From: Minisyncoccota bacterium
GTDB lineage: Bacteria > Patescibacteriota > Minisyncoccia > Phycocordibacterales > WO2-35-19
DNA: 64,000 nucleotides
Assembly: GCA_041664625.1 (NCBI GenBank)
Contig: JBAYKK010000001.1
Location: 1,956 to 65,955 of the forward strand
Direction of reading: 5' to 3'
Positions within the stretch are counted from its first letter, which is position 1. Each line of letters opens with the position of its first letter. Of this stretch, positions 3,256 to 58,919 are shown in pieces. A program made the position numbers and the translations under genes. The notes beneath the pieces are model-generated. The model was not told the origin of the DNA. It worked only from the letters and a program-made list of their open reading frames with translations, and did not search any database.

Positions 3256-4554
3256 ATGATGCAATCATGGCTTGATCCGTCAGAGCGTGAGTATTTGGTT
3301 TCTCGTTTACTCGAGAGCCAACTTATCAAATTTTCGAACGAAAGGAATTTGCCACTCAAAAGTGGTGGCAAGACTGACGTTTACATCAACTTGCGAGATG
3401 CTCGTAACGATCCACGAGCAATTGGGCTTGTTGCTAGAATGTTTGAAAACCCGCTACGGCGACTTAATCCGGCCCGCTTCATTGAAGTGCCGGATGCGGT
3501 GAGTTGCTTCGCTGGACCACTTTCAATGGCTCTCGGCATGTCATATATCACTGTTCGTGAGAAGCCGAAGGAAGGACGCGTGGCAAAAGCTACGGCCATC
3601 GGCTCAGCAAAGTTCGGAAGTACCGCAGTCATCATTGATGATGTTGTTACCGACGGCGAATCGAAAATCGTTCCGTTCTTCGAGGCAAAATCGATGGGAC
3701 TTCAGGTCAATGACCTCGTTGTTCTCGTCGATCGCCAACAGGGTTGGAAGAAAAAATTCGCTGAACGCGGTGTTGATCTCTCAGTTTGGCCAGGCATGAC
3801 ACTTCACGATGTGCGGAAACTTCTCATCTCGGATTTCGGGGTTATGCAGCGATGCAATCCCGAGACGGAAGAGAAAAATTGCATCATCGTGGCTCTCGAC
3901 GGCAAGAATTGGGAAGAGACGCTAGCGATCATCGACCCACTCCGCCCGTCTGGCTGCATCCTCAAGGTAAACGATCTCCTTTTTGATCAAGGGATCGCTA
4001 ACCTCATTCCCGATCTTCAGGTTTACGGACGAGTCATGGCCGATCTCAAATGCCATGACATTCCGAACACTGTGAAAAACACCTGCGAGCGACTTCGTAA
4101 GAATCCGCCATGGGCTGTTACCGTCCATGCTTCAGGTGCTTCCGGGATGGTTAAGGCTGCTGTCGATGCTCTAGTTGGTACGCCGACCAAGGTGCTCGCC
4201 ATCACGGTCCTTACCTCGATTGATTCGGTAACATGCGAAGATATTTACAATCGTCTTCCGCTGGATCAAGTGTTAATTCTGGCTGAGAAAGCATCTAAGG
4301 CGGGAGCACATGGTTTCGTTTGCTCTCCCGAGGAAGCACGCGAACTCAAACAAATCTATCCCGACAAAACGATTGTCACTCCGGGTATTCGCTCTGAAGC
4401 GACTCCCAAAGATGATCAAGCCAGGATTGCCACACCCTGTGGCGCCAGGGATAACGGTTCTAATTACCTGGTCATGGGCCGTCAAATCCTTGGGGCCAAG
4501 GACCCGGTTGCTGAAGTCAAACGAGTTCTGACTGAAGAACTCGAAATCAAGTAA
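3256..4554 (+). CDS. Bifunctional orotate phosphoribosyltransferase / orotidine-5'-phosphate decarboxylase, a UMP synthase-like PyrE-PyrF fusion.
   Basis: N-terminal half carries the PRPP-binding motif 'VIIDDVVTDGES'. C-terminal half carries OMPdecase motifs 'DLKCHDIPNT', 'VTVHASGASGM', 'VLTS' and 'TPGIR'. RBS GGGAG lies upstream of ATG 3256. GC content is clearly above the flanks. Confidence 0.8.
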   Translation: MMQSWLDPSEREYLVSRLLESQLIKFSNERNLPLKSGGKTDVYINLRDARNDPRAIGLVARMFENPLRRLNPARFIEVPDAVSCFAGPLSMALGMSYITVREKPKEGRVAKATAIGSAKFGSTAVIIDDVVTDGESKIVPFFEAKSMGLQVNDLVVLVDRQQGWKKKFAERGVDLSVWPGMTLHDVRKLLISDFGVMQRCNPETEEKNCIIVALDGKNWEETLAIIDPLRPSGCILKVNDLLFDQGIANLIPDLQVYGRVMADLKCHDIPNTVKNTCERLRKNPPWAVTVHASGASGMVKAAVDALVGTPTKVLAITVLTSIDSVTCEDIYNRLPLDQVLILAEKASKAGAHGFVCSPEEARELKQIYPDKTIVTPGIRSEATPKDDQARIATPCGARDNGSNYLVMGRQILGAKDPVAEVKRVLTEELEIK

Positions 4555-8019: not shown

Positions 8020-8029
8020 CAAAAAGAAA

Positions 8030-8400
8030 AACCACATCCATCTCTCGACGGTTGTGGCTTTGCCAGGTTTCAGTTCCACGGGTTCTGGCTACCGGCTCGT
8101 TTTTTCCTGAGGTTTTAGCGAGTTCCTCTTCTTAATCCACTTGTGTCGTTCTCATTTCGAAGGCTCATTTTTTTGTTTCTTTCGACACTCTTTTTAAATA
8201 AAAAAAGTGTCTGGTCTAGCCTGGCCCCAAATATGGCCTGGGCTAGTTTTTGGATCGATTGCTGAGCAAGTGGGCGTTGTGCCTCTCCGCCTACCTGCTG
8301 TCACCCCTGTTTTAGAGCGGGTGGCTGCTCTTTCCTAGGTACGTCACTCTGTATATATCATAGCATAATCACATAATTTGTCAAGCATAATTTGCATTTT
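8030..8400. other. ~370 bp GC-enriched noncoding interval between tgt and the truB-like gene. It contains imperfect hairpins and no ORF of 60 aa or more on either strand. Candidate structured RNA.
   Basis: The ORF track is empty here and GC is visibly above the AT-rich flanks. I found no RNase P P4 'AAAGTCC', tmRNA or SRP consensus. Confidence 0.2.
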
Positions 8401-8480
8401 GTAAAATTAAGTGTTAAAAAACGGCTAAAAATAAGGATTTTTGCAAAATGGAGACAAAATGAGGTAGTATTTAGTCACTT

Positions 8481-10895: not shown

Positions 10896-11086
10896 TGCCA
10901 AAGTTAAAAACCTTCTCGCTTAGCCGTCGCATAATTTCTGCCTGCCCGCCATCGCTATGCTCAAGCATTGCAGGTGGGCTGAAATTTGCTATGCTCGGCA
11001 CGTTTGCCTACGCATAGGCACGCGATAAGCTTTTTGACTTTGGCCTGTTGCAATATTTTGTCAAATCCTGTAAAGTAGTATGCGTT

Positions 11087-11527
11087 ATGCCAGTAGCCAA
11101 AAAAACCACAAAAAAAGAGGTAAAAACCACCCCAAAGGCTCCTTCTGCCCCCGCTAAAGCTATGGCGGACAAGAAGGTTGTAAAAGCTGAAAAAGTCGTC
11201 CCAAATGGCAGTTTTGCCGTTGTGGAGACTGGTGGTAAGCAATACCGAGTGGCTGTTGGCGAAACTATCAAAGTTGAAGCTATAAATGGGGAATTGAAAG
11301 AGGGAGATGCTGTAGTTTTTGATAAAGTCCTTTTGATTGACAATGGCACCGATTCTACTGACATTGGTACTCCTTATATCGCTGGTGCCAAAGTGACTGG
11401 TACTCTAGTTGAAATTGGCCGTAATGCTAAAGTCATCGTCATCAAATACAAACAAAAATCTCGTTATTTCAAGAAAAATGGCCATCGCCAACCTTTCTTT
11501 GCTGTCCGTATTGATAAAATTTCTTAA
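11087..11527 (+). CDS. rplU: 50S ribosomal protein L21 with a Lys/Ala-rich N-terminal extension.
   Basis: 'FAVVETGGKQYRVAVGETIKVE' matches the bL21 signature. Confidence 0.85.
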   Translation: MPVAKKTTKKEVKTTPKAPSAPAKAMADKKVVKAEKVVPNGSFAVVETGGKQYRVAVGETIKVEAINGELKEGDAVVFDKVLLIDNGTDSTDIGTPYIAGAKVTGTLVEIGRNAKVIVIKYKQKSRYFKKNGHRQPFFAVRIDKIS

Positions 11528-11545
11528 TTAAAAACGCAATCTCAA

Positions 11546-11664
11546 AACCTAACCCCCTTAATCCCCCTTATCTTAAGGGGGAAACCACGCAACATAAATA
11601 AACCATTGAGTAATAAACAGTAGTCACCCTCTCCTTAATATAAGGAGAGGGAAGGGGTGAGGTT
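11546..11664. repeat. ~120 bp MITE-like element. Its terminal inverted repeats are AACCTAACCCC and GGGGTGAGGTT, and it holds two internal GC hairpins (CCCCCTTA/TAAGGGGG and CCCTCTCCTT/AAGGAGAGGG).
   Basis: Read directly. Related copies lie at 12570, 54257, 55026 and 58149. Confidence 0.6.
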
Positions 11665-11681
11665 AGAAAAAAATTTGAAAA

Positions 11682-12314
11682 TTAACTAAAGAAGAAATCT
11701 TTAAATTGGAAGAGAATAGAAAATATAATAAAGACATACCAGATTATCAAAATCTGGATGTGATTTTTTGATACGAAACGGAAGAAAGATGGCCAAAAAG
11801 TGAAATGATTTTCTCTAAAATTCCAAACAGTGGTGTAAAGCAAAAGTGGCCAAGTGACAGCCCAAACTATCATACAATAAATACAAAGTGAGCCAATGCG
11901 GTAAACGCTTTCAAAGAAAAACCACATCACGAAAACCATAGCAGCAAGTGTGCCCAAATTAACCAAAAGCCAAAGTGGTTTGCGAGATCTTCCACCAGAC
12001 AAAAGCATCACACCTATCGCTAAAAGCATAGCAAAAGCTACTATTCCCAAAAGCGAATTTGGGAAGCCAAATACTTCGGCCTGCCAAGTGGTAGCCACAC
12101 TAGTGCAACTAACAAAAGGATTTATATTGCAGGGGAGCTCAACTCCCGGGTTTTTTATAAGTTCAAAAGTATCTACGGTCAAAATAAAGGAGGCCAAAAG
12201 GCCGATGATACTCCCAACTATTAATATGTAAGAAAATGATTTTTGAATTGCCATATTATTGGTGTTGTTTTTTTTAAGAAAACTTTCTGGAAAAAAGTCT
12301 GGCCTGTGCAACAA
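11682..12314 (-). CDS. Vitamin K epoxide reductase (VKOR)-family membrane thiol oxidoreductase.
   Basis: Loop Cys pair 'LPCNINPFVSC' plus the TM CxxC 'CIYC' with multiple TM helices. Confidence 0.65.
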   Translation of the reverse strand: MLHRPDFFPESFLKKNNTNNMAIQKSFSYILIVGSIIGLLASFILTVDTFELIKNPGVELPCNINPFVSCTSVATTWQAEVFGFPNSLLGIVAFAMLLAIGVMLLSGGRSRKPLWLLVNLGTLAAMVFVMWFFFESVYRIGSLCIYCMIVWAVTWPLLLYTTVWNFRENHFTFWPSFFRFVSKNHIQILIIWYVFIIFSILFQFKDFFFS

Positions 12315-12358: not shown

Positions 12359-13027
12359 TTAACTTCTGTTCCGGAGTGCATTTTTCATCGTCTCTGGATC
12401 AGTATACTCCAATTCGGTGCCCATAGAAAGACCTTTGCCCAAGTGCGAAATTTTGATTTTATTTTTTTCTAGGATTGGTTTTAAAAATTTGGCGACGTAA
12501 TCTCCTGTGTTTTCGCCTTCTGGGTTCCAATTGACGCCCAAAATAATCTCTTTAAGTCCAGAATAATGTTCCTCTCCTCGCCCCCCTCTTAAGGTAAGAG
12601 GGGGGTTGGGGGGTGATATTCTTTTTTCAATAAAACTTTTAAGTTCTTTGATGCGGATTCTTTTTTCCGGTTCTTTTTCTAATATCGGCACTGAACCACC
12701 AAGCACAAAATAAATGCCATTGAAACTGCCGTTTTTTTCTACTGATTCCAGATCGATATCTCTTTGTACCAACATCAAGACAGATTGGTCTCTAGTCTGA
12801 TCAGAGCAAATTTTGCAAAAGTGGCCATTATTGTTTTTGGATTCAAAAAATCTATGACAATCTTCACAAATCATCACATCATTTTTTAAATCTTTTATGT
12901 TTTGAGAAAGTTCTCTCAAAGTGCTATCGGTCCGGGTCAAAAGATAGTAGACAAACCGCCGAGCTTGCCGTGGGCCAATACCTGGGAATTGGGAAAATAT
13001 TTGAATGAGTTTTTCTATTGAGTTCAT
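12359..13027 (-). CDS. recR: Recombination protein RecR carrying a ~17 aa in-frame insertion encoded by a hairpin repeat.
   Basis: HhH 'GIGPRQARR', C4 Zn finger 'CEDCHRF...CKIC' and Toprim 'IILGVNWNPEGENTGDY'. The extra segment 'SPPNPPLTLRGGRGEEH' maps to 12570-12619. Confidence 0.9.
   Translation of the reverse strand: MNSIEKLIQIFSQFPGIGPRQARRFVYYLLTRTDSTLRELSQNIKDLKNDVMICEDCHRFFESKNNNGHFCKICSDQTRDQSVLMLVQRDIDLESVEKNGSFNGIYFVLGGSVPILEKEPEKRIRIKELKSFIEKRISPPNPPLTLRGGRGEEHYSGLKEIILGVNWNPEGENTGDYVAKFLKPILEKNKIKISHLGKGLSMGTELEYTDPETMKNALRNRS
12570..12619. repeat. GC-rich hairpin repeat (CCCCCCTCTT-aaggt-AAGAGGGGGG followed by GGGGGGTGA) lying inside the recR coding sequence.
   Basis: Perfect 10 bp stem in an otherwise AT-rich gene. 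Its end resembles the family's TIR. Confidence 0.55.
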
Positions 13028-54217: not shown

Positions 54218-54311
54218 AAAATTATTGTATCATATAGCTACCTCATTTTGAAATTACTACCTCACCCCTAACCCCTCCCCTTGCAAAGGGGAGGGGAAAG
54301 AGACAAAAACA

Positions 54312-54665
54312 ATGTCAAAAATTCATAATAATAAAATTTTCATAGAAAGAAGAGTAGAATTACGAAAGAATCAAACTCCGACAGAAGAAAAATTGTGGTT
54401 CTTTCTTCGAGGTAATAAACTTAACGGAGTAAAATTTAAAAGACAGCATAGTATAGGAGGTTATATTCCGGATTTTTATTGCGCCAAAAAGAAATTGATT
54501 ATTGAACTTGATGGAGAAATACATAACACAACTGAAGCTCGAGAATATGACGAAGTAAGAGATAAGTTTTTTAAGGAACTTGGATATACAACACTCAGAT
54601 TTTTGAATAGGGAAATAGAGAATGATATTGATGAGGTTTTGGACAAAATATCAAAATTTTTGTAA
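54312..54665 (+). CDS. DUF559 (Vsr/PD-(D/E)xK-like) endonuclease-domain protein.
   Basis: 'RKNQTPTEEKLW..LR......KFKRQHSIGGYIPDFYC..KKLIIELDGEIH' with a C-terminal 'LRFLNREI'. Confidence 0.75.
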   Translation: MSKIHNNKIFIERRVELRKNQTPTEEKLWFFLRGNKLNGVKFKRQHSIGGYIPDFYCAKKKLIIELDGEIHNTTEAREYDEVRDKFFKELGYTTLRFLNREIENDIDEVLDKISKFL

Positions 54666-54715
54666 CAGAAAACCCGCCCATCGCACGAGCAGGAATTCCT
54701 GTCGCCAATGGCGGG

Positions 54716-54928
54716 TTAGCGAGAAACCACAATCTCGCCGGTCCGAAGGTCTACGATATGGGACCAGTCGTAACCGTCGAAGCCGGTGGTCTTGGGCAAC
54801 TTCTCAGTTGCTTCCTCGGTGGTGTTGAAGGACATTACTCGGCCGTCTTCTTTGCGAAGAACAGATTTCCACCCCTCGTGTTCGTCGCCATCGTTAATAC
54901 AGCCTGCGAAAATGATATATCTCAGCAT
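54716..54928 (-). CDS. Hypothetical small acidic protein (~70 aa), GC-rich, inside the TIR element.
   Basis: RBS GGAG upstream of ATG. A bidirectional hairpin (AACCCGCCCAT...ATGGCGGGTT) separates it from the DUF559 gene. Confidence 0.35.
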   Translation of the reverse strand: MLRYIIFAGCINDGDEHEGWKSVLRKEDGRVMSFNTTEEATEKLPKTTGFDGYDWSHIVDLRTGEIVVSR

Positions 54929-55101
54929 ACTCAATCTCCTCTGTCTTAATTATACACCCATTCAATATATATGTCAAGCAAGAAAGAGTAAAAATGTTTT
55001 AAAATAAGGAGATTTTGGTATTTAGCCCCTCCACTTTGCAAGGGGAGGGGCAATCCGACGCAAGTCGGATGGGGTGAGGTAGTTTTTGAAGTGGGGGAAA
55101 A

Positions 55102-58109: not shown

Positions 58110-58148
58110 ATGCAATATCCTAACATACCTTATAATTTTGTGCAAAAG

Positions 58149-58216
58149 AACCTCACCCCTAACCCCTCTCCTAGATGCAGGAGAGGGGAAAATGTCAAAG
58201 GTGCCCTTTGACATTT
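58149..58216. repeat. Repeat-family copy (AACCTCACCCCT + CCCCTCTCCT-agatgc-AGGAGAGGGG) followed by a perfect 12 bp hairpin AAATGTCAAAGG-tgc-CCTTTGACATTT.
   Basis: Read directly. Lies upstream of rpsU. Confidence 0.55.
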
Positions 58217-58383
58217 GGAGATGTGTTGTAATTTTTCTCTGATCATCCCACATCTGGCCGATCGGCCAAATAGGGGGTGAAAACAGTTAAGGGAGATTTG
58301 TTTTTTTAATATTTAAAAAAAGAAAGCCCTGCACGATGGCGCGGGGCCAATCTTGCGGGGCTGGGGGAGGAAGAACAGATGTT

Positions 58384-58890
58384 TTACTCGTTTGCGATAC
58401 GAGCTCGTACATGATCGTACGAATATTTGATGTCCCAAGAATCCAAACGGAAGCCACCATCAACTTCCTTACGAAATGCAATGCCTGCCACCGAAAGTCC
58501 TTTTGGGTCTTGGGGACCACCGGCACAGAGAGTTACACTCTGATGGTCAAGGTGATTCCCGTTTGAAGCTTCGTTGTATTGAAGTTCAAGTATGAGTCGC
58601 TCGCGAAGTGTGATGCAACGGTCTAGTAGACTCTTCTCTTTCAAGTTTTCCACCGAAAGATTTTTGTATTCTTCGTCGCTTTCGATGTTGGGAACGAAGG
58701 TTCTTTCTGTTACAGAGGATGGTTGAGGGAATATCTCATCCAACATATCCCATTCCCAATAACTACTAAACGGGTAATCTCTAAGCATCAACTCCCATGC
58801 AAGTTCTGAAGTCTTGGGTTTTTCAGGGCCGTCTGAGACTACATTCCACATTGATTTTAACTCCTTTATTCTGCCATAAGTATAGCACAA
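58384..58890 (-). CDS. Hypothetical protein.
   Basis: ORF with a hairpin (CTCGT-ttgcgat-ACGAG) downstream. Confidence 0.4.
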   Translation of the reverse strand: MCYTYGRIKELKSMWNVVSDGPEKPKTSELAWELMLRDYPFSSYWEWDMLDEIFPQPSSVTERTFVPNIESDEEYKNLSVENLKEKSLLDRCITLRERLILELQYNEASNGNHLDHQSVTLCAGGPQDPKGLSVAGIAFRKEVDGGFRLDSWDIKYSYDHVRARIANE

Positions 58891-58919
58891 TCACAGAATT
58901 TGTCAAGCAGATTTAGATT

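Follow-up and report, generated by a model that had tools for sequence, protein, structure and literature searches.

An intergenic doublet of BoxC/PIT/TM-type modules in a Patescibacteria genome and the possible link of such modules to DUF559 nucleases

RESULTS

The rplU/VKOR spacer contains an inverted pair of modules

We analyzed a 64-kb stretch of DNA (hereafter, the window) from a Patescibacteria genome with ~39% GC, whose closest named relatives are Candidatus Zambryskibacteria; proteins identical to those of the window are recorded under Candidatus Paceibacterota bacterium. The subject of this work is an element without coding content at 11546–11664, referred to below as the doublet, which lies inside the 154-bp spacer between the convergent genes rplU and VKOR. 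The doublet is an inverted pair of two ~40-bp modules, which are of the type described in Escherichia coli as BoxC, PIT (potential intrastrand triplex), or TM (triplex motif) repeats. Modules of this type also bound a cassette with a DUF559 nuclease gene elsewhere in the window (54257–55082), and we infer that the modules most likely spread by means of the DUF559 nuclease. The features of the rplU/VKOR region are as follows.

11048–11527, plus strand: rplU (Pfam L21, E 9e-33)
11546–11582, plus strand: left module of the doublet, composed of a C-rich outer block AACCTAACCCCC, linker TTAA, and hairpin TCCCCCTTA-TCT-TAAGGGGGA
11583–11626, no strand: AT-rich spacer of the doublet (44 bp) between the two modules
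11627–11664, minus strand: right module of the doublet, inverted, composed of hairpin CCCTCTCCTTA-ATA-TAAGGAGAGGG, linker AA, and outer block GGGGTGAGGTT
11682–12314, minus strand: VKOR (PF07884, E 7e-39)

The termini of the doublet, AACCTAACCCC at 11546–11556 and GGGGTGAGGTT at 11654–11664, are reverse-complementary at 10 of 11 positions, and both hairpins (11562–11582 and 11627–11651) are perfect. When 131 nt around the doublet were folded as single-stranded DNA in a computation that models Watson-Crick hairpins only, a stability of −24.9 kcal/mol was obtained, with the termini paired around both hairpins. Shuffled sequences averaged −11.3 kcal/mol, and none of 200 shuffles was equally stable (z = −5.5). 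Sequence and fold thus confirm the ~120-bp segment with complementary termini and two GC hairpins that an original prediction had placed in this spacer.

In the left module, the outer block mirrors the hairpin arm, which is a triplex-type architecture. Over 35 nt, this module shares 91% identity with one from the TGT/FKBP spacer of relatives (L002:15177–15211), and the right module contains a 22-nt stretch that recurs unchanged in a Falkowbacteria module (L080). No homolog of the 44-bp spacer was found by blastn in the window, in the interior of the DUF559 cassette, or in any fetched locus. The recurring unit is the single module and not the 119-bp pair.

The doublet could also be a regulatory hairpin of the host, i.e., a bidirectional terminator or an mRNA-stabilizing hairpin of rplU and VKOR, with its resemblance to other copies reflecting convergence of GC hairpins in an AT-rich genome. 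The location between convergent genes fits this explanation, as does the classical hairpin with a T-run found at the same place in a relative (L006). However, a terminator scan of 11300–11900 revealed three terminator-like sites, none of which overlaps the doublet. Neither doublet hairpin is followed by a T-run, and PIT/BoxC elements had neither promoter nor terminator activity in E. coli in an earlier study, as reported in PMC4666352; a terminator role is therefore unlikely. Moreover, close relatives carry no, one, or two modules at this site, a terminator would have no use for the outer block or for its mirroring of the stem, and one and the same 20-mer is shared between phyla and also found within coding genes (see below). 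Overall, we consider a regulatory origin of the doublet quite improbable.

Six module copies are present in the window

Copies in the window were counted with a composite motif, defined as the outer motif followed by a GC hairpin within 14 nt; 100 dinucleotide shuffles served as the control. The composite matched the window 7 times, compared to a mean of 0.12 and a maximum of 1 in the shuffles. The outer motif alone was weakly overrepresented (5 matches versus 1.8 expected). One composite match, at 3467–3503, was rejected as a false positive, being located inside an open reading frame (ORF) and having arms that are not C-rich. The six real copies, five intergenic and one intragenic, bear out the membership in a repeat family that had been proposed from shared termini and hairpins. 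Besides the doublet and the ends of the DUF559 cassette, modules are located at the following positions.

12560–12616, minus strand: recR module of 57 nt, in frame in the Toprim domain, TCACCCCCCAACCCCCCTCTTACCTTAAGAGGGGGGCGAGGAGAGGAACATTATTCT, encoding SPPNPPLTLRGGRGEEHYS
58148–58188, plus strand: solitary module upstream of rpsU, GAACCTCACCCC-TAA-CCCCTCTCC TAGATGCA GGAGAGGGG

A module consists of the outer block (A/C)CCTCACCCC, a linker of 2 to 5 nt, and a hairpin with the arms CCCCTCTCC and GGAGAGGGG; a small variable hairpin can take the place of the linker. All six window copies, including both doublet modules, have this three-block layout. Changes in one stem arm are compensated in the other (CCCCTCCCC/GGGGAGGGG, CCCCCTTA/TAAGGGGG, and CCCCCCTCTTA/TAAGAGGGGGG), and the outer block covaries with the stem in mirror symmetry; for example, CCTAACCCCC accompanies CCCCCTTA. 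The cassette hairpins, CCCCTCCCC..GGGGAGGGG, differ from CCCTCTCC..GGAGAGGG by a compensated change, and the CCCCTCTCC..GGAGAGGGG form is found at 58163–58188.

The solitary module upstream of rpsU has the pan-bacterial canonical sequence and includes the exact 20-mer used in the cross-phylum search described below. The region 3′ of it (58190–58900) contains further hairpins, AAATGTCAAAGG-TGCC-CTTTGACATTT and GGCCGATCGGCC, a degenerate GGGGGTGA block, and a 168–amino acid (aa) ORF without family (58384–58890). In relatives, the site measures 43 to 133 bp and separates rpsU from a tRNA-synthetase-like gene with an HGTP_anticodon domain; L174 instead has a 178-aa ORF there, unrelated to the 168-aa one. 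The rpsU-upstream site looks like a second variable spot adjoining a module.

The modules are a variant of the BoxC/PIT/TM class

The original prediction missed that the family is already described as the BoxC/PIT/TM triplex motif. This identity was reached through the cassette protein, which belongs to the NCBIfam YcjD family and led to the ycjD locus of E. coli K-12 and then to the repeat TMECO #9. In such repeats, a C-rich stem, a loop, a G-rich stem, a short loop, and a second, mirror-symmetric G-rich block allow a single strand to fold into an intrastrand triplex (Holder et al. 2015, PMC4666352), as shown by circular dichroism and nuclear magnetic resonance for the E. coli sequence only. 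The same paper treats TMECO as identical to BoxC, a repeat described in the 1990s (cited there from Bergler 1992 and Bachellier 1999), and to the PIT element of Hoyne and Maher (2000). The published TMECO pattern is CCCTCNCCC-N3-6-GGGNGAGGG-N3-GGGNGAGGG; 23 copies were reported in MG1655 and 3610 in 262 proteobacterial genomes, along with many G/C-rich triplex motifs in cyanobacteria. The GenBank annotation of K-12 has 33 BoxC copies (PMC5172473). E. coli copies were described as “always intergenic,” with five close inverted pairs in K-12, and TM-bearing loci vary more between strains (PMC4666352).

The strict TMECO pattern had no match in the window. When the pattern was shifted by one position in all three blocks, it matched at 54260–54296 and 58151–58188. 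In the at least 119 genome loci listed (see below), the shifted pattern had 131 matches and the strict pattern 3; the copy adjacent to ycjD in E. coli fits the strict pattern. The two doublet modules are AT-adapted forms of the shifted pattern, with AT-extended stems. We therefore base the family assignment not on a literal pattern match but on the three mirror-related blocks, the continuity of sequence variants, and a shared mismatch type.

Like BoxC/PIT/TM repeats, the modules have three blocks, with a C-rich stem, a loop, a G-rich stem, ~3 nt (often TTA), and a mirror G-rich block. They are also multicopy, interspersed, and mainly intergenic, occur singly or as close inverted pairs at loci that vary between close relatives, and have a recurrent single-mismatch form (the “mm” type in E. 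coli; GGCGAGGGG here). They differ in that the window copies have C4TCTC2 compared to the published C3TCTC3. In addition, the outer blocks of the doublet are distal and form terminal inverted repeats, whereas those of E. coli pair 1+2 face each other, and the host is a Patescibacteria genome of 39% GC in which some copies are in frame inside genes. The doublet is thus an inverted pair of BoxC/PIT/TM-type modules, a sequence variant of a known repeat class in a new phylum.

Database searches gave no independent annotation. At the gathering threshold, Rfam returned only three tRNAs for the whole window, and at E up to 10, it returned only chance-level matches for the element (microRNA families, CRISPR-DR54). 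A literature search by sequence string found no paper with the module sequence.

Modules are shared across bacterial phyla and viruses

Two window copies contain the 20-mer CTCACCCCTAACCCCTCYCC. A search for exact matches to it yielded 45 viral stretches of IMG/VR, with GC contents of 37 to 70%, and at least 119 genome stretches of a collection with one genome per species. The chance expectation for the latter is ~2 by our own arithmetic with uniform base composition. The hosts are Chloroflexota, Bacteroidota, Cyanobacteria, Planctomycetota, Alpha-, Gamma-, and Deltaproteobacteria, Acidobacteriota, Spirochaetes, Verrucomicrobia, Ignavibacteria, Clostridiales, and several Patescibacteria.

The 3′ arm of the hairpin lies outside the search pattern. 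At 172 nonredundant sites, this arm was perfectly complementary in 110 cases and had at most one mismatch in 159. The same A-to-C change, GGCGAGGGG opposite CCCCTCTCC, which results in a T·C mismatch, was shared by 23 of the 49 single-mismatch sites; most “mm” copies of E. coli have this 3′ arm (Table 1 of PMC4666352). The third block mirrored the stem perfectly in 58% of hairpins, compared to 6% of controls (112 hairpins, p = 5e-16). Overall, the module family is real, structured, conserved, and pan-bacterial, and does not result from chance.

Two arrangements with multiple modules were observed. In viral contigs of 42 to 47% GC (L039:10426–11783, L014, L021, L030, L041, and L043; IMG/VR contigs 3300028586_000777/_000791 and 3300022936_000189), modules run at ~335-bp spacing; each is followed by a conserved tail, GGAGAGGGGAACTCA..CCGGCTTACTC, and paired with an inverted copy, which resembles a tandem array of short module-bounded units. 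In a metagenome-assembled genome of Synechococcales (L127:2975–5994), at least 17 overlapping modules are packed in 3 kb in alternating orientations, with a recurring AGTCGGA(T/C) linker. This dense array fits the high cyanobacterial counts reported (PMC4666352).

Modules are gained and lost in relatives, including in frame

Relatives with flanking proteins 71 to 87% identical were chosen for comparison. In this comparison, made without control sites, every site differed between genomes: rplU/VKOR, FKBP/TGT, recR, trxB, truB, and trxB/ftsZ. The rplU/VKOR spacer is 28 bp long and has no module in L006, where an ordinary AT-type hairpin with a T-run is present; it is 32 bp long with one module in L002 to L005 and L007, and 154 bp long with two modules in the window. 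The FKBP/TGT spacer contains a ~95-bp inverted pair with the doublet layout in L002 and L007 and is reduced to 8 bp in the window and 2 bp in L006. The orthologous loci are thus not all filled, in contrast to what an ancestral regulatory hairpin would lead one to expect: L006 is empty at rplU/VKOR, and both the window and L006 are empty at FKBP/TGT. The trxB/ftsZ spacer is 35 to 143 bp in L172 to L174 and 884 bp in the window.

Several modules are inserted in genes. The 57-nt in-frame insert in recR encodes the 19 residues SPPNPPLTLRGGRGEEHYS and is absent, at both the protein and the DNA level, from RecR of relatives (83 to 87% identical); the Pfam match to the Toprim domain takes 114 residues over an 84-position profile. 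Since the identical RecR protein with the insert was read on three contigs, the insert is not an assembly artifact. In L002, trxB (L002:284–304) has an 11-residue module-encoded insert, PPTPLILRGEQDK, which makes the protein 320 aa compared to 309 aa, and a different 11-residue insert is present at the same position in L178. In truB of L002 (L002:12754–12777), a module encodes GSPPLVVRRGLGGV. The in-frame inserts are 33 to 57 nt long. Three L002 copies have the same loop and tail (CTTAC-A/T-ACAAGAG...GGGGCTTC), which indicates proliferation within that genome. These comparisons show that modules and pairs are gained and lost at intergenic sites and are also found in frame in housekeeping genes of the Paceibacterota/Zambryskibacteria clade.

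The original prediction had labeled the doublet MITE-like (miniature inverted-repeat transposable element). A classical MITE would have arisen by deletion from an insertion sequence and would be mobilized in trans by a known transposase, of the DDE type or another, acting on the terminal inverted repeats. The 10/11 inverted repeats, the ~120-bp length, and ends in common with a larger gene-carrying element agree with this label. However, comparison to empty sites revealed no target-site duplication at the doublet, the recR insert, the DUF559 cassette, or the FKBP/TGT doublet of L002; the original prediction had called for this check at copy boundaries. A direct repeat, TGAGGTAG, is located 11 nt beyond the right cassette end and has no left counterpart. 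Furthermore, no transposase was found in the larger element or beside modules in 164 loci, the doublet has no internal homology to the larger element, and the recurring unit is a single ~40-bp module rather than a pair. The lack of duplications, transposase, and internal homology largely excludes a classical MITE, which we regard as hardly tenable. Since relatives differ at every site and target-site duplications are absent, the element is unstable and probably mobile, but not as a classical MITE.

Modules bound a cassette with a DUF559 gene

The cassette at 54257–55082 is 826 bp long and consists of a left module, the DUF559 gene, a bidirectional GC hairpin, a convergent ORF (hereafter, cargo), and a right module.

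54257–54296, plus strand: left cassette end, CTACCTCACCCC-TAA-CCCCTCCCC TTGCAAA GGGGAGGGG
54312–54665, plus strand: DUF559 gene, 117 aa (PF04480, E 1e-35, 122 bits versus a cutoff of 20.6; NCBIfam YcjD family)
54716–54934, minus strand: cargo ORF, 70 to 72 aa, visibly richer in G+C than the DUF559 gene and without family match
55026–55082, minus strand: right cassette end, composed of hairpin CCCCTCCAC TTTGCAA GGGGAGGGG (one mismatch), small hairpin TCCGAC-GCAA-GTCGGA, and outer block GGGGTGAGGTAG

The cassette termini, CTACCTCACCCC and GGGGTGAGGTAG, match those of the doublet, as does the architecture, in line with the common ends that the original prediction had pointed out. The left end fits the register-shifted TM pattern and is the same in the cassettes of L176, L178, and L175. 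The right-end hairpin is also present in L176. Cassette linkers between the outer block and the main hairpin are often small hairpins whose stems vary with compensation, as observed in L176, L178, and L175. The cargo ORF has a consensus promoter (TTGACA at 54977–54972, 17 nt, TATAAT at 54954–54949), an AGGAG ribosome-binding site, and a GC hairpin terminator at about 54670–54712.

The trxB/ftsZ site is also occupied by DUF559 genes (76 and 71% identical) in two Zambryskibacteria lineages; the ends of these cassettes are the same, and their second ORFs measure 117 and 158 aa. A further cassette, located between an aldolase gene and rplY, has a DUF559 gene 69% identical to that of the window and a 92-aa membrane ORF; the contig with this cassette shares an identical DUF559 protein with the contig of the window. 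Four cassettes in the clade thus have shared ends and different cargo. The cargo regions are window 54666–55010, L176:4379–4860, L178:4352–4940, and L175:8355–8730. The 158-aa ORF has a weak HTH match; no significant family was found for the cargo ORFs in Pfam, PADLOC, or NCBIfam.

Judged by its matches, the cassette protein is a Vsr-like PD-(D/E)XK nuclease. It matches PDB 3HRL with E 3e-20 and, weakly, the catalytic domain of I-Bth0305I (3R3P, E 0.046), the Hjc resolvase, and the PADLOC “homing endonuclease” model. Residues D54, E65, D67, H71, and D80 are invariant in 16 diverse DUF559 homologs; together with a fold family that includes the homing endonuclease I-Bth0305I, this makes the nuclease look active. 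The catalytic core, with E-x-D-x3-H...D invariant in DUF559, is common to EDxHD/Vsr-like homing endonucleases (I-Bth0305I; PMC3239194, PMC3384342) and the Vsr mismatch endonuclease, and the former provide a precedent for a selfish, mobility-promoting nuclease of this fold. DUF559 differs in that it is encoded here as a stand-alone protein of ~115 aa, outside any intron or intein; a separate domain for DNA binding was not detected. The occurrence of a conserved mismatch beside genes of a Vsr-like (mismatch-nicking) nuclease fold is suggestive.

The doublet had been proposed to be a nonautonomous derivative of the larger element. The shared ends support this relationship, but the doublet spacer has no homology to the cassette, and the cassette encodes a nuclease rather than a known transposase. 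A deletion-derivative origin is unproven, and the reverse, entry of DUF559 into a preexisting doublet, is equally possible. The latter underlies the main rival of the explanation considered in Discussion. It holds that modules turn over independently of DUF559, e.g., by replication slippage or recombination at non-B DNA, as proposed by Holder et al. (PMC4666352), and that DUF559 is a homing-endonuclease-like selfish gene that cuts module pairs and is copied in. In this view, DUF559 would use module pairs as targets, without the pairs depending on it, and the 119-bp doublet would represent a target into which no gene has been copied. In agreement with this, the cassette has the layout of the doublet with genes replacing the spacer, and the two interiors are unrelated. 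DUF559 is present at trxB/ftsZ in three lineages, with a 35- to 143-bp spacer in three others, and is distantly related to I-Bth0305I. Modules also far outnumber DUF559 genes and occur without them. However, the trxB/ftsZ cassettes are 71 to 76% identical and trxB itself is 71 to 73% identical, so that vertical descent with loss fits as well as repeated homing. We consider entry of DUF559 into independently maintained module pairs unlikely, although less so than the two alternatives discussed above.

DUF559 genes are associated with modules across bacteria

The relationship with the DUF559 element noted in the original prediction led to the most interesting result of this work, a cross-phylum link between DUF559 and the modules, which was assessed in three tests on separate samples. 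The first test started from the motif: in 164 motif loci and the window, the ORFs located up to 1 kb from a module were compared all-against-all and grouped into clusters. One large family, DUF559, was obtained in 13 loci, including the window, and the next cluster comprised 5 loci; DUF559 is the only gene family that recurs beside the motif across phyla. A profile search revealed 13 DUF559 genes in the fetched loci (Bacteroidota, Planctomycetia, Anaerolineae, Methylococcaceae, and others), 12 of which have modules within ~100 bp, most on both sides. No consistent gene apart from DUF559 was found between the inverted module pairs of the motif loci.

In the second test, which started from the gene, 80 metagenome loci were picked by DUF559 similarity only (39 to 64% identity). 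GC hairpins with C/G-asymmetric arms were 15-fold denser within 200 bp of the gene than at more than 500 bp from it. The density of triplex-type hairpins, i.e., those with a mirror third block, was 3.06/kb within 200 bp, 0.27/kb in other noncoding DNA, and 0.10/kb in coding DNA, an 11-fold enrichment beside these 80 independently sampled genes. At least one triplex-type hairpin was present in 46 of 69 evaluable loci, and several of the remaining loci show imperfect ones by eye. The flanks of one gene share a variant, while variants differ widely between loci.

The third test addressed E. coli. In K-12, a hairpin of the module type overlaps the stop codon of ycjD, and CCCTCGCCCCTCTGGGGAGAGGGTTAGGGTGAGGGG, located 168 bp downstream, is TMECO #9 (Table 1 of PMC4666352). 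Across 5426 complete E. coli genomes, the module was found by blastn at a median of 17 places per genome; ycjD is present in 3378 of these genomes and absent from 38%. Chromosomes were then listed at even steps down the ranking obtained with a composite query of ycjD and TMECO #9. The ycjD-positive chromosomes (n = 37) had 13 to 30 places (median of 21), compared to 1 to 17 (median of 7) in the ycjD-negative ones (n = 22). The approximately threefold difference in copies was significant in a Mann-Whitney test uncorrected for phylogeny (p = 3e-10).

Other details of the K-12 locus (L260:11185–11830) were as follows. The ycjD stop lies inside a mismatch-type module hairpin, as a result of which the protein ends ...SPSP. 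A near-copy (~45 nt) of the ycjD 3′ end lies ~60 nt downstream and is followed by TMECO #9, and a perfect 17-bp inverted repeat, TCACCTCATTCTGACAA...TTGTCAGAATGAGGTGA, is located just upstream of ycjD. In some strains (H141 and H147), IS1 is inserted in ycjD.

No report of a link between BoxC/PIT/TM repeats and DUF559 was found in the searchable literature. Papers on DUF559 are silent on flanking repeats, and PMC4666352 contains neither the word ycjD nor endonuclease and reports no associated gene. The link therefore appears to be unreported, although an earlier description elsewhere is possible.

DISCUSSION

The explanation that we favor, with somewhat more confidence than doubt, is that the modules are nonautonomous partners of the DUF559 nuclease in a relationship like that of REPINs and RAYTs. 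The nuclease would recognize an extruded hairpin, cruciform, or triplex, possibly at the conserved T·C mismatch, and nick it. Recombination or gene conversion between module copies would then mend the nick or break and, in doing so, duplicate, delete, or exchange modules together with the DNA between two of them, i.e., the DUF559 gene and variable cargo. Such a mechanism would account for the different cargo found at a single site and for the higher module numbers of ycjD-positive E. coli.

REPINs and RAYT transposases (Bertels & Rainey 2011, PMC3116915, PMC3337134), whose REP sequences fall into GTAG- and CGTC-tagged superfamilies (PMC3733652), offer an analogy. In both cases, short GC-rich palindromic repeats are involved, an inverted doublet folds into one long hairpin (here, at −24.9 kcal/mol with paired termini), the associated gene is flanked by repeats, there are many repeats per gene copy, and genomes without the gene have fewer repeats (here, in the E. 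coli sample). The partner is different: a Vsr-like PD-(D/E)XK nuclease instead of a Y1/HUH (IS200-like) transposase. The modules also have neither a GTAG nor a CGTC tag, and their outer block is (A/C)CCTCACCCC; they possess a mirror third block, their sequence is common to phyla rather than lineage-specific, and their cassettes carry cargo. The module-DUF559 system may thus at most work like REPIN/RAYT and is not a member of that group.

Several observations weigh against a partnership of modules and DUF559. Binding or cutting of modules by DUF559 is itself a proposal drawn from sequence. While a single strand forms a stable triplex in vitro, none was detected in duplex DNA or in vivo, and transposase or integrase remnants near E. 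coli copies were “never found” (PMC4666352). No repeat of the doublet as a whole unit was found in the data compared. DUF559 was absent from the 45 viral motif loci and from L001 to L007, and viral modules therefore exist without it. The gene-first sample represents short stand-alone DUF559 proteins like that of the window, which are only a part of the Pfam family. Beside DUF559 genes, modules are found with the outer block turned either away from the gene or toward it; a simple transposon would not be expected to show both orientations. In E. coli, modules persist in ycjD-negative genomes at up to 17 places, and the correlation is confounded by phylogroup (O25b:H4 and O2:K1 have 1 to 4 places, and O157:H7 has 12). 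Last, in a B2 strain (O2:K1:H4, avian pathogenic E. coli), TetR and RND-efflux genes upstream of fabI replace ycjD and TMECO #9; homology to K-12 resumes ~45 nt beyond TMECO #9, and these genes make the precise boundaries of a clean ycjD empty site unreadable.

The main rival introduced above, in which DUF559 homes into pairs of independently maintained modules, leaves three results unexplained: the approximately three times higher module count in ycjD-positive E. coli, the near-identical module sequence across phyla, and the entry of modules in frame into coding genes. The present data do not separate it from mobilization of the modules by DUF559, the explanation that we prefer, and we rate it as the less plausible of the two.

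A broader proposal is that DUF559, including E. coli YcjD, is the missing partner of BoxC/PIT/TM repeats and that the two form a third REP-like system, pan-bacterial and horizontally spread. We hold this possibility only tentatively. If true, a Vsr-like PD-(D/E)XK nuclease would recognize a hairpin or triplex fold, compared to the Y1 transposase recognizing the REP hairpin. By the action of this nuclease, repeats and the small cassettes bounded by them would be copied, lost, and exchanged, and the repeats would colonize housekeeping genes of Patescibacteria in frame. The proposal would thus identify an agent that moves or maintains BoxC-type repeats and, at the same time, a role for the DUF559 nucleases, which are among the most widespread uncharacterized small nucleases. 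The doublet itself is ordinary in kind, as the BoxC/PIT/TM class has been known since the 1990s and was surveyed in 2015. Our data extend these repeats beyond Proteobacteria and Cyanobacteria to Patescibacteria, where they are in frame in recR, trxB, and truB, and such in-frame repeats matter for protein annotation and alignment in Patescibacteria genomes.

A second comparison is to Rickettsia palindromic elements (RPE), reportedly the subject of work by Ogata et al. in 2000. RPE have been classed as CGTC repeats (PMC3733652). As with RPE, palindromic repeats are found here in frame in housekeeping genes of a reduced genome, where they add a short peptide (recR in the window; trxB and truB in L002). 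In contrast to RPE, the modules are unrelated in sequence, lack the CGTC tag, are shorter (33 to 57 nt), and have a three-block mirror layout that RPE do not share.

Two further observations concern the genomes compared. The tgt/truB spacer (window 8020–8480; L002:13375–13967) is a 460- to 590-bp noncoding region with GC-rich, structured-looking stretches. By eye, the window and L002 versions look similar, and no Rfam match was obtained at E up to 1; the spacer may be an unannotated RNA gene. In L002, it also carries a module and a second hairpin, AGAGGGTGACCC...GGGTCACCCTC. In L173 (L173:7921–8990), an IS3-type transposase pair (rve and HTH_Tnp_1), unrelated to the modules, is located beside a CAP-domain gene near trxB, indicating that ordinary insertion sequences also occur in this clade.

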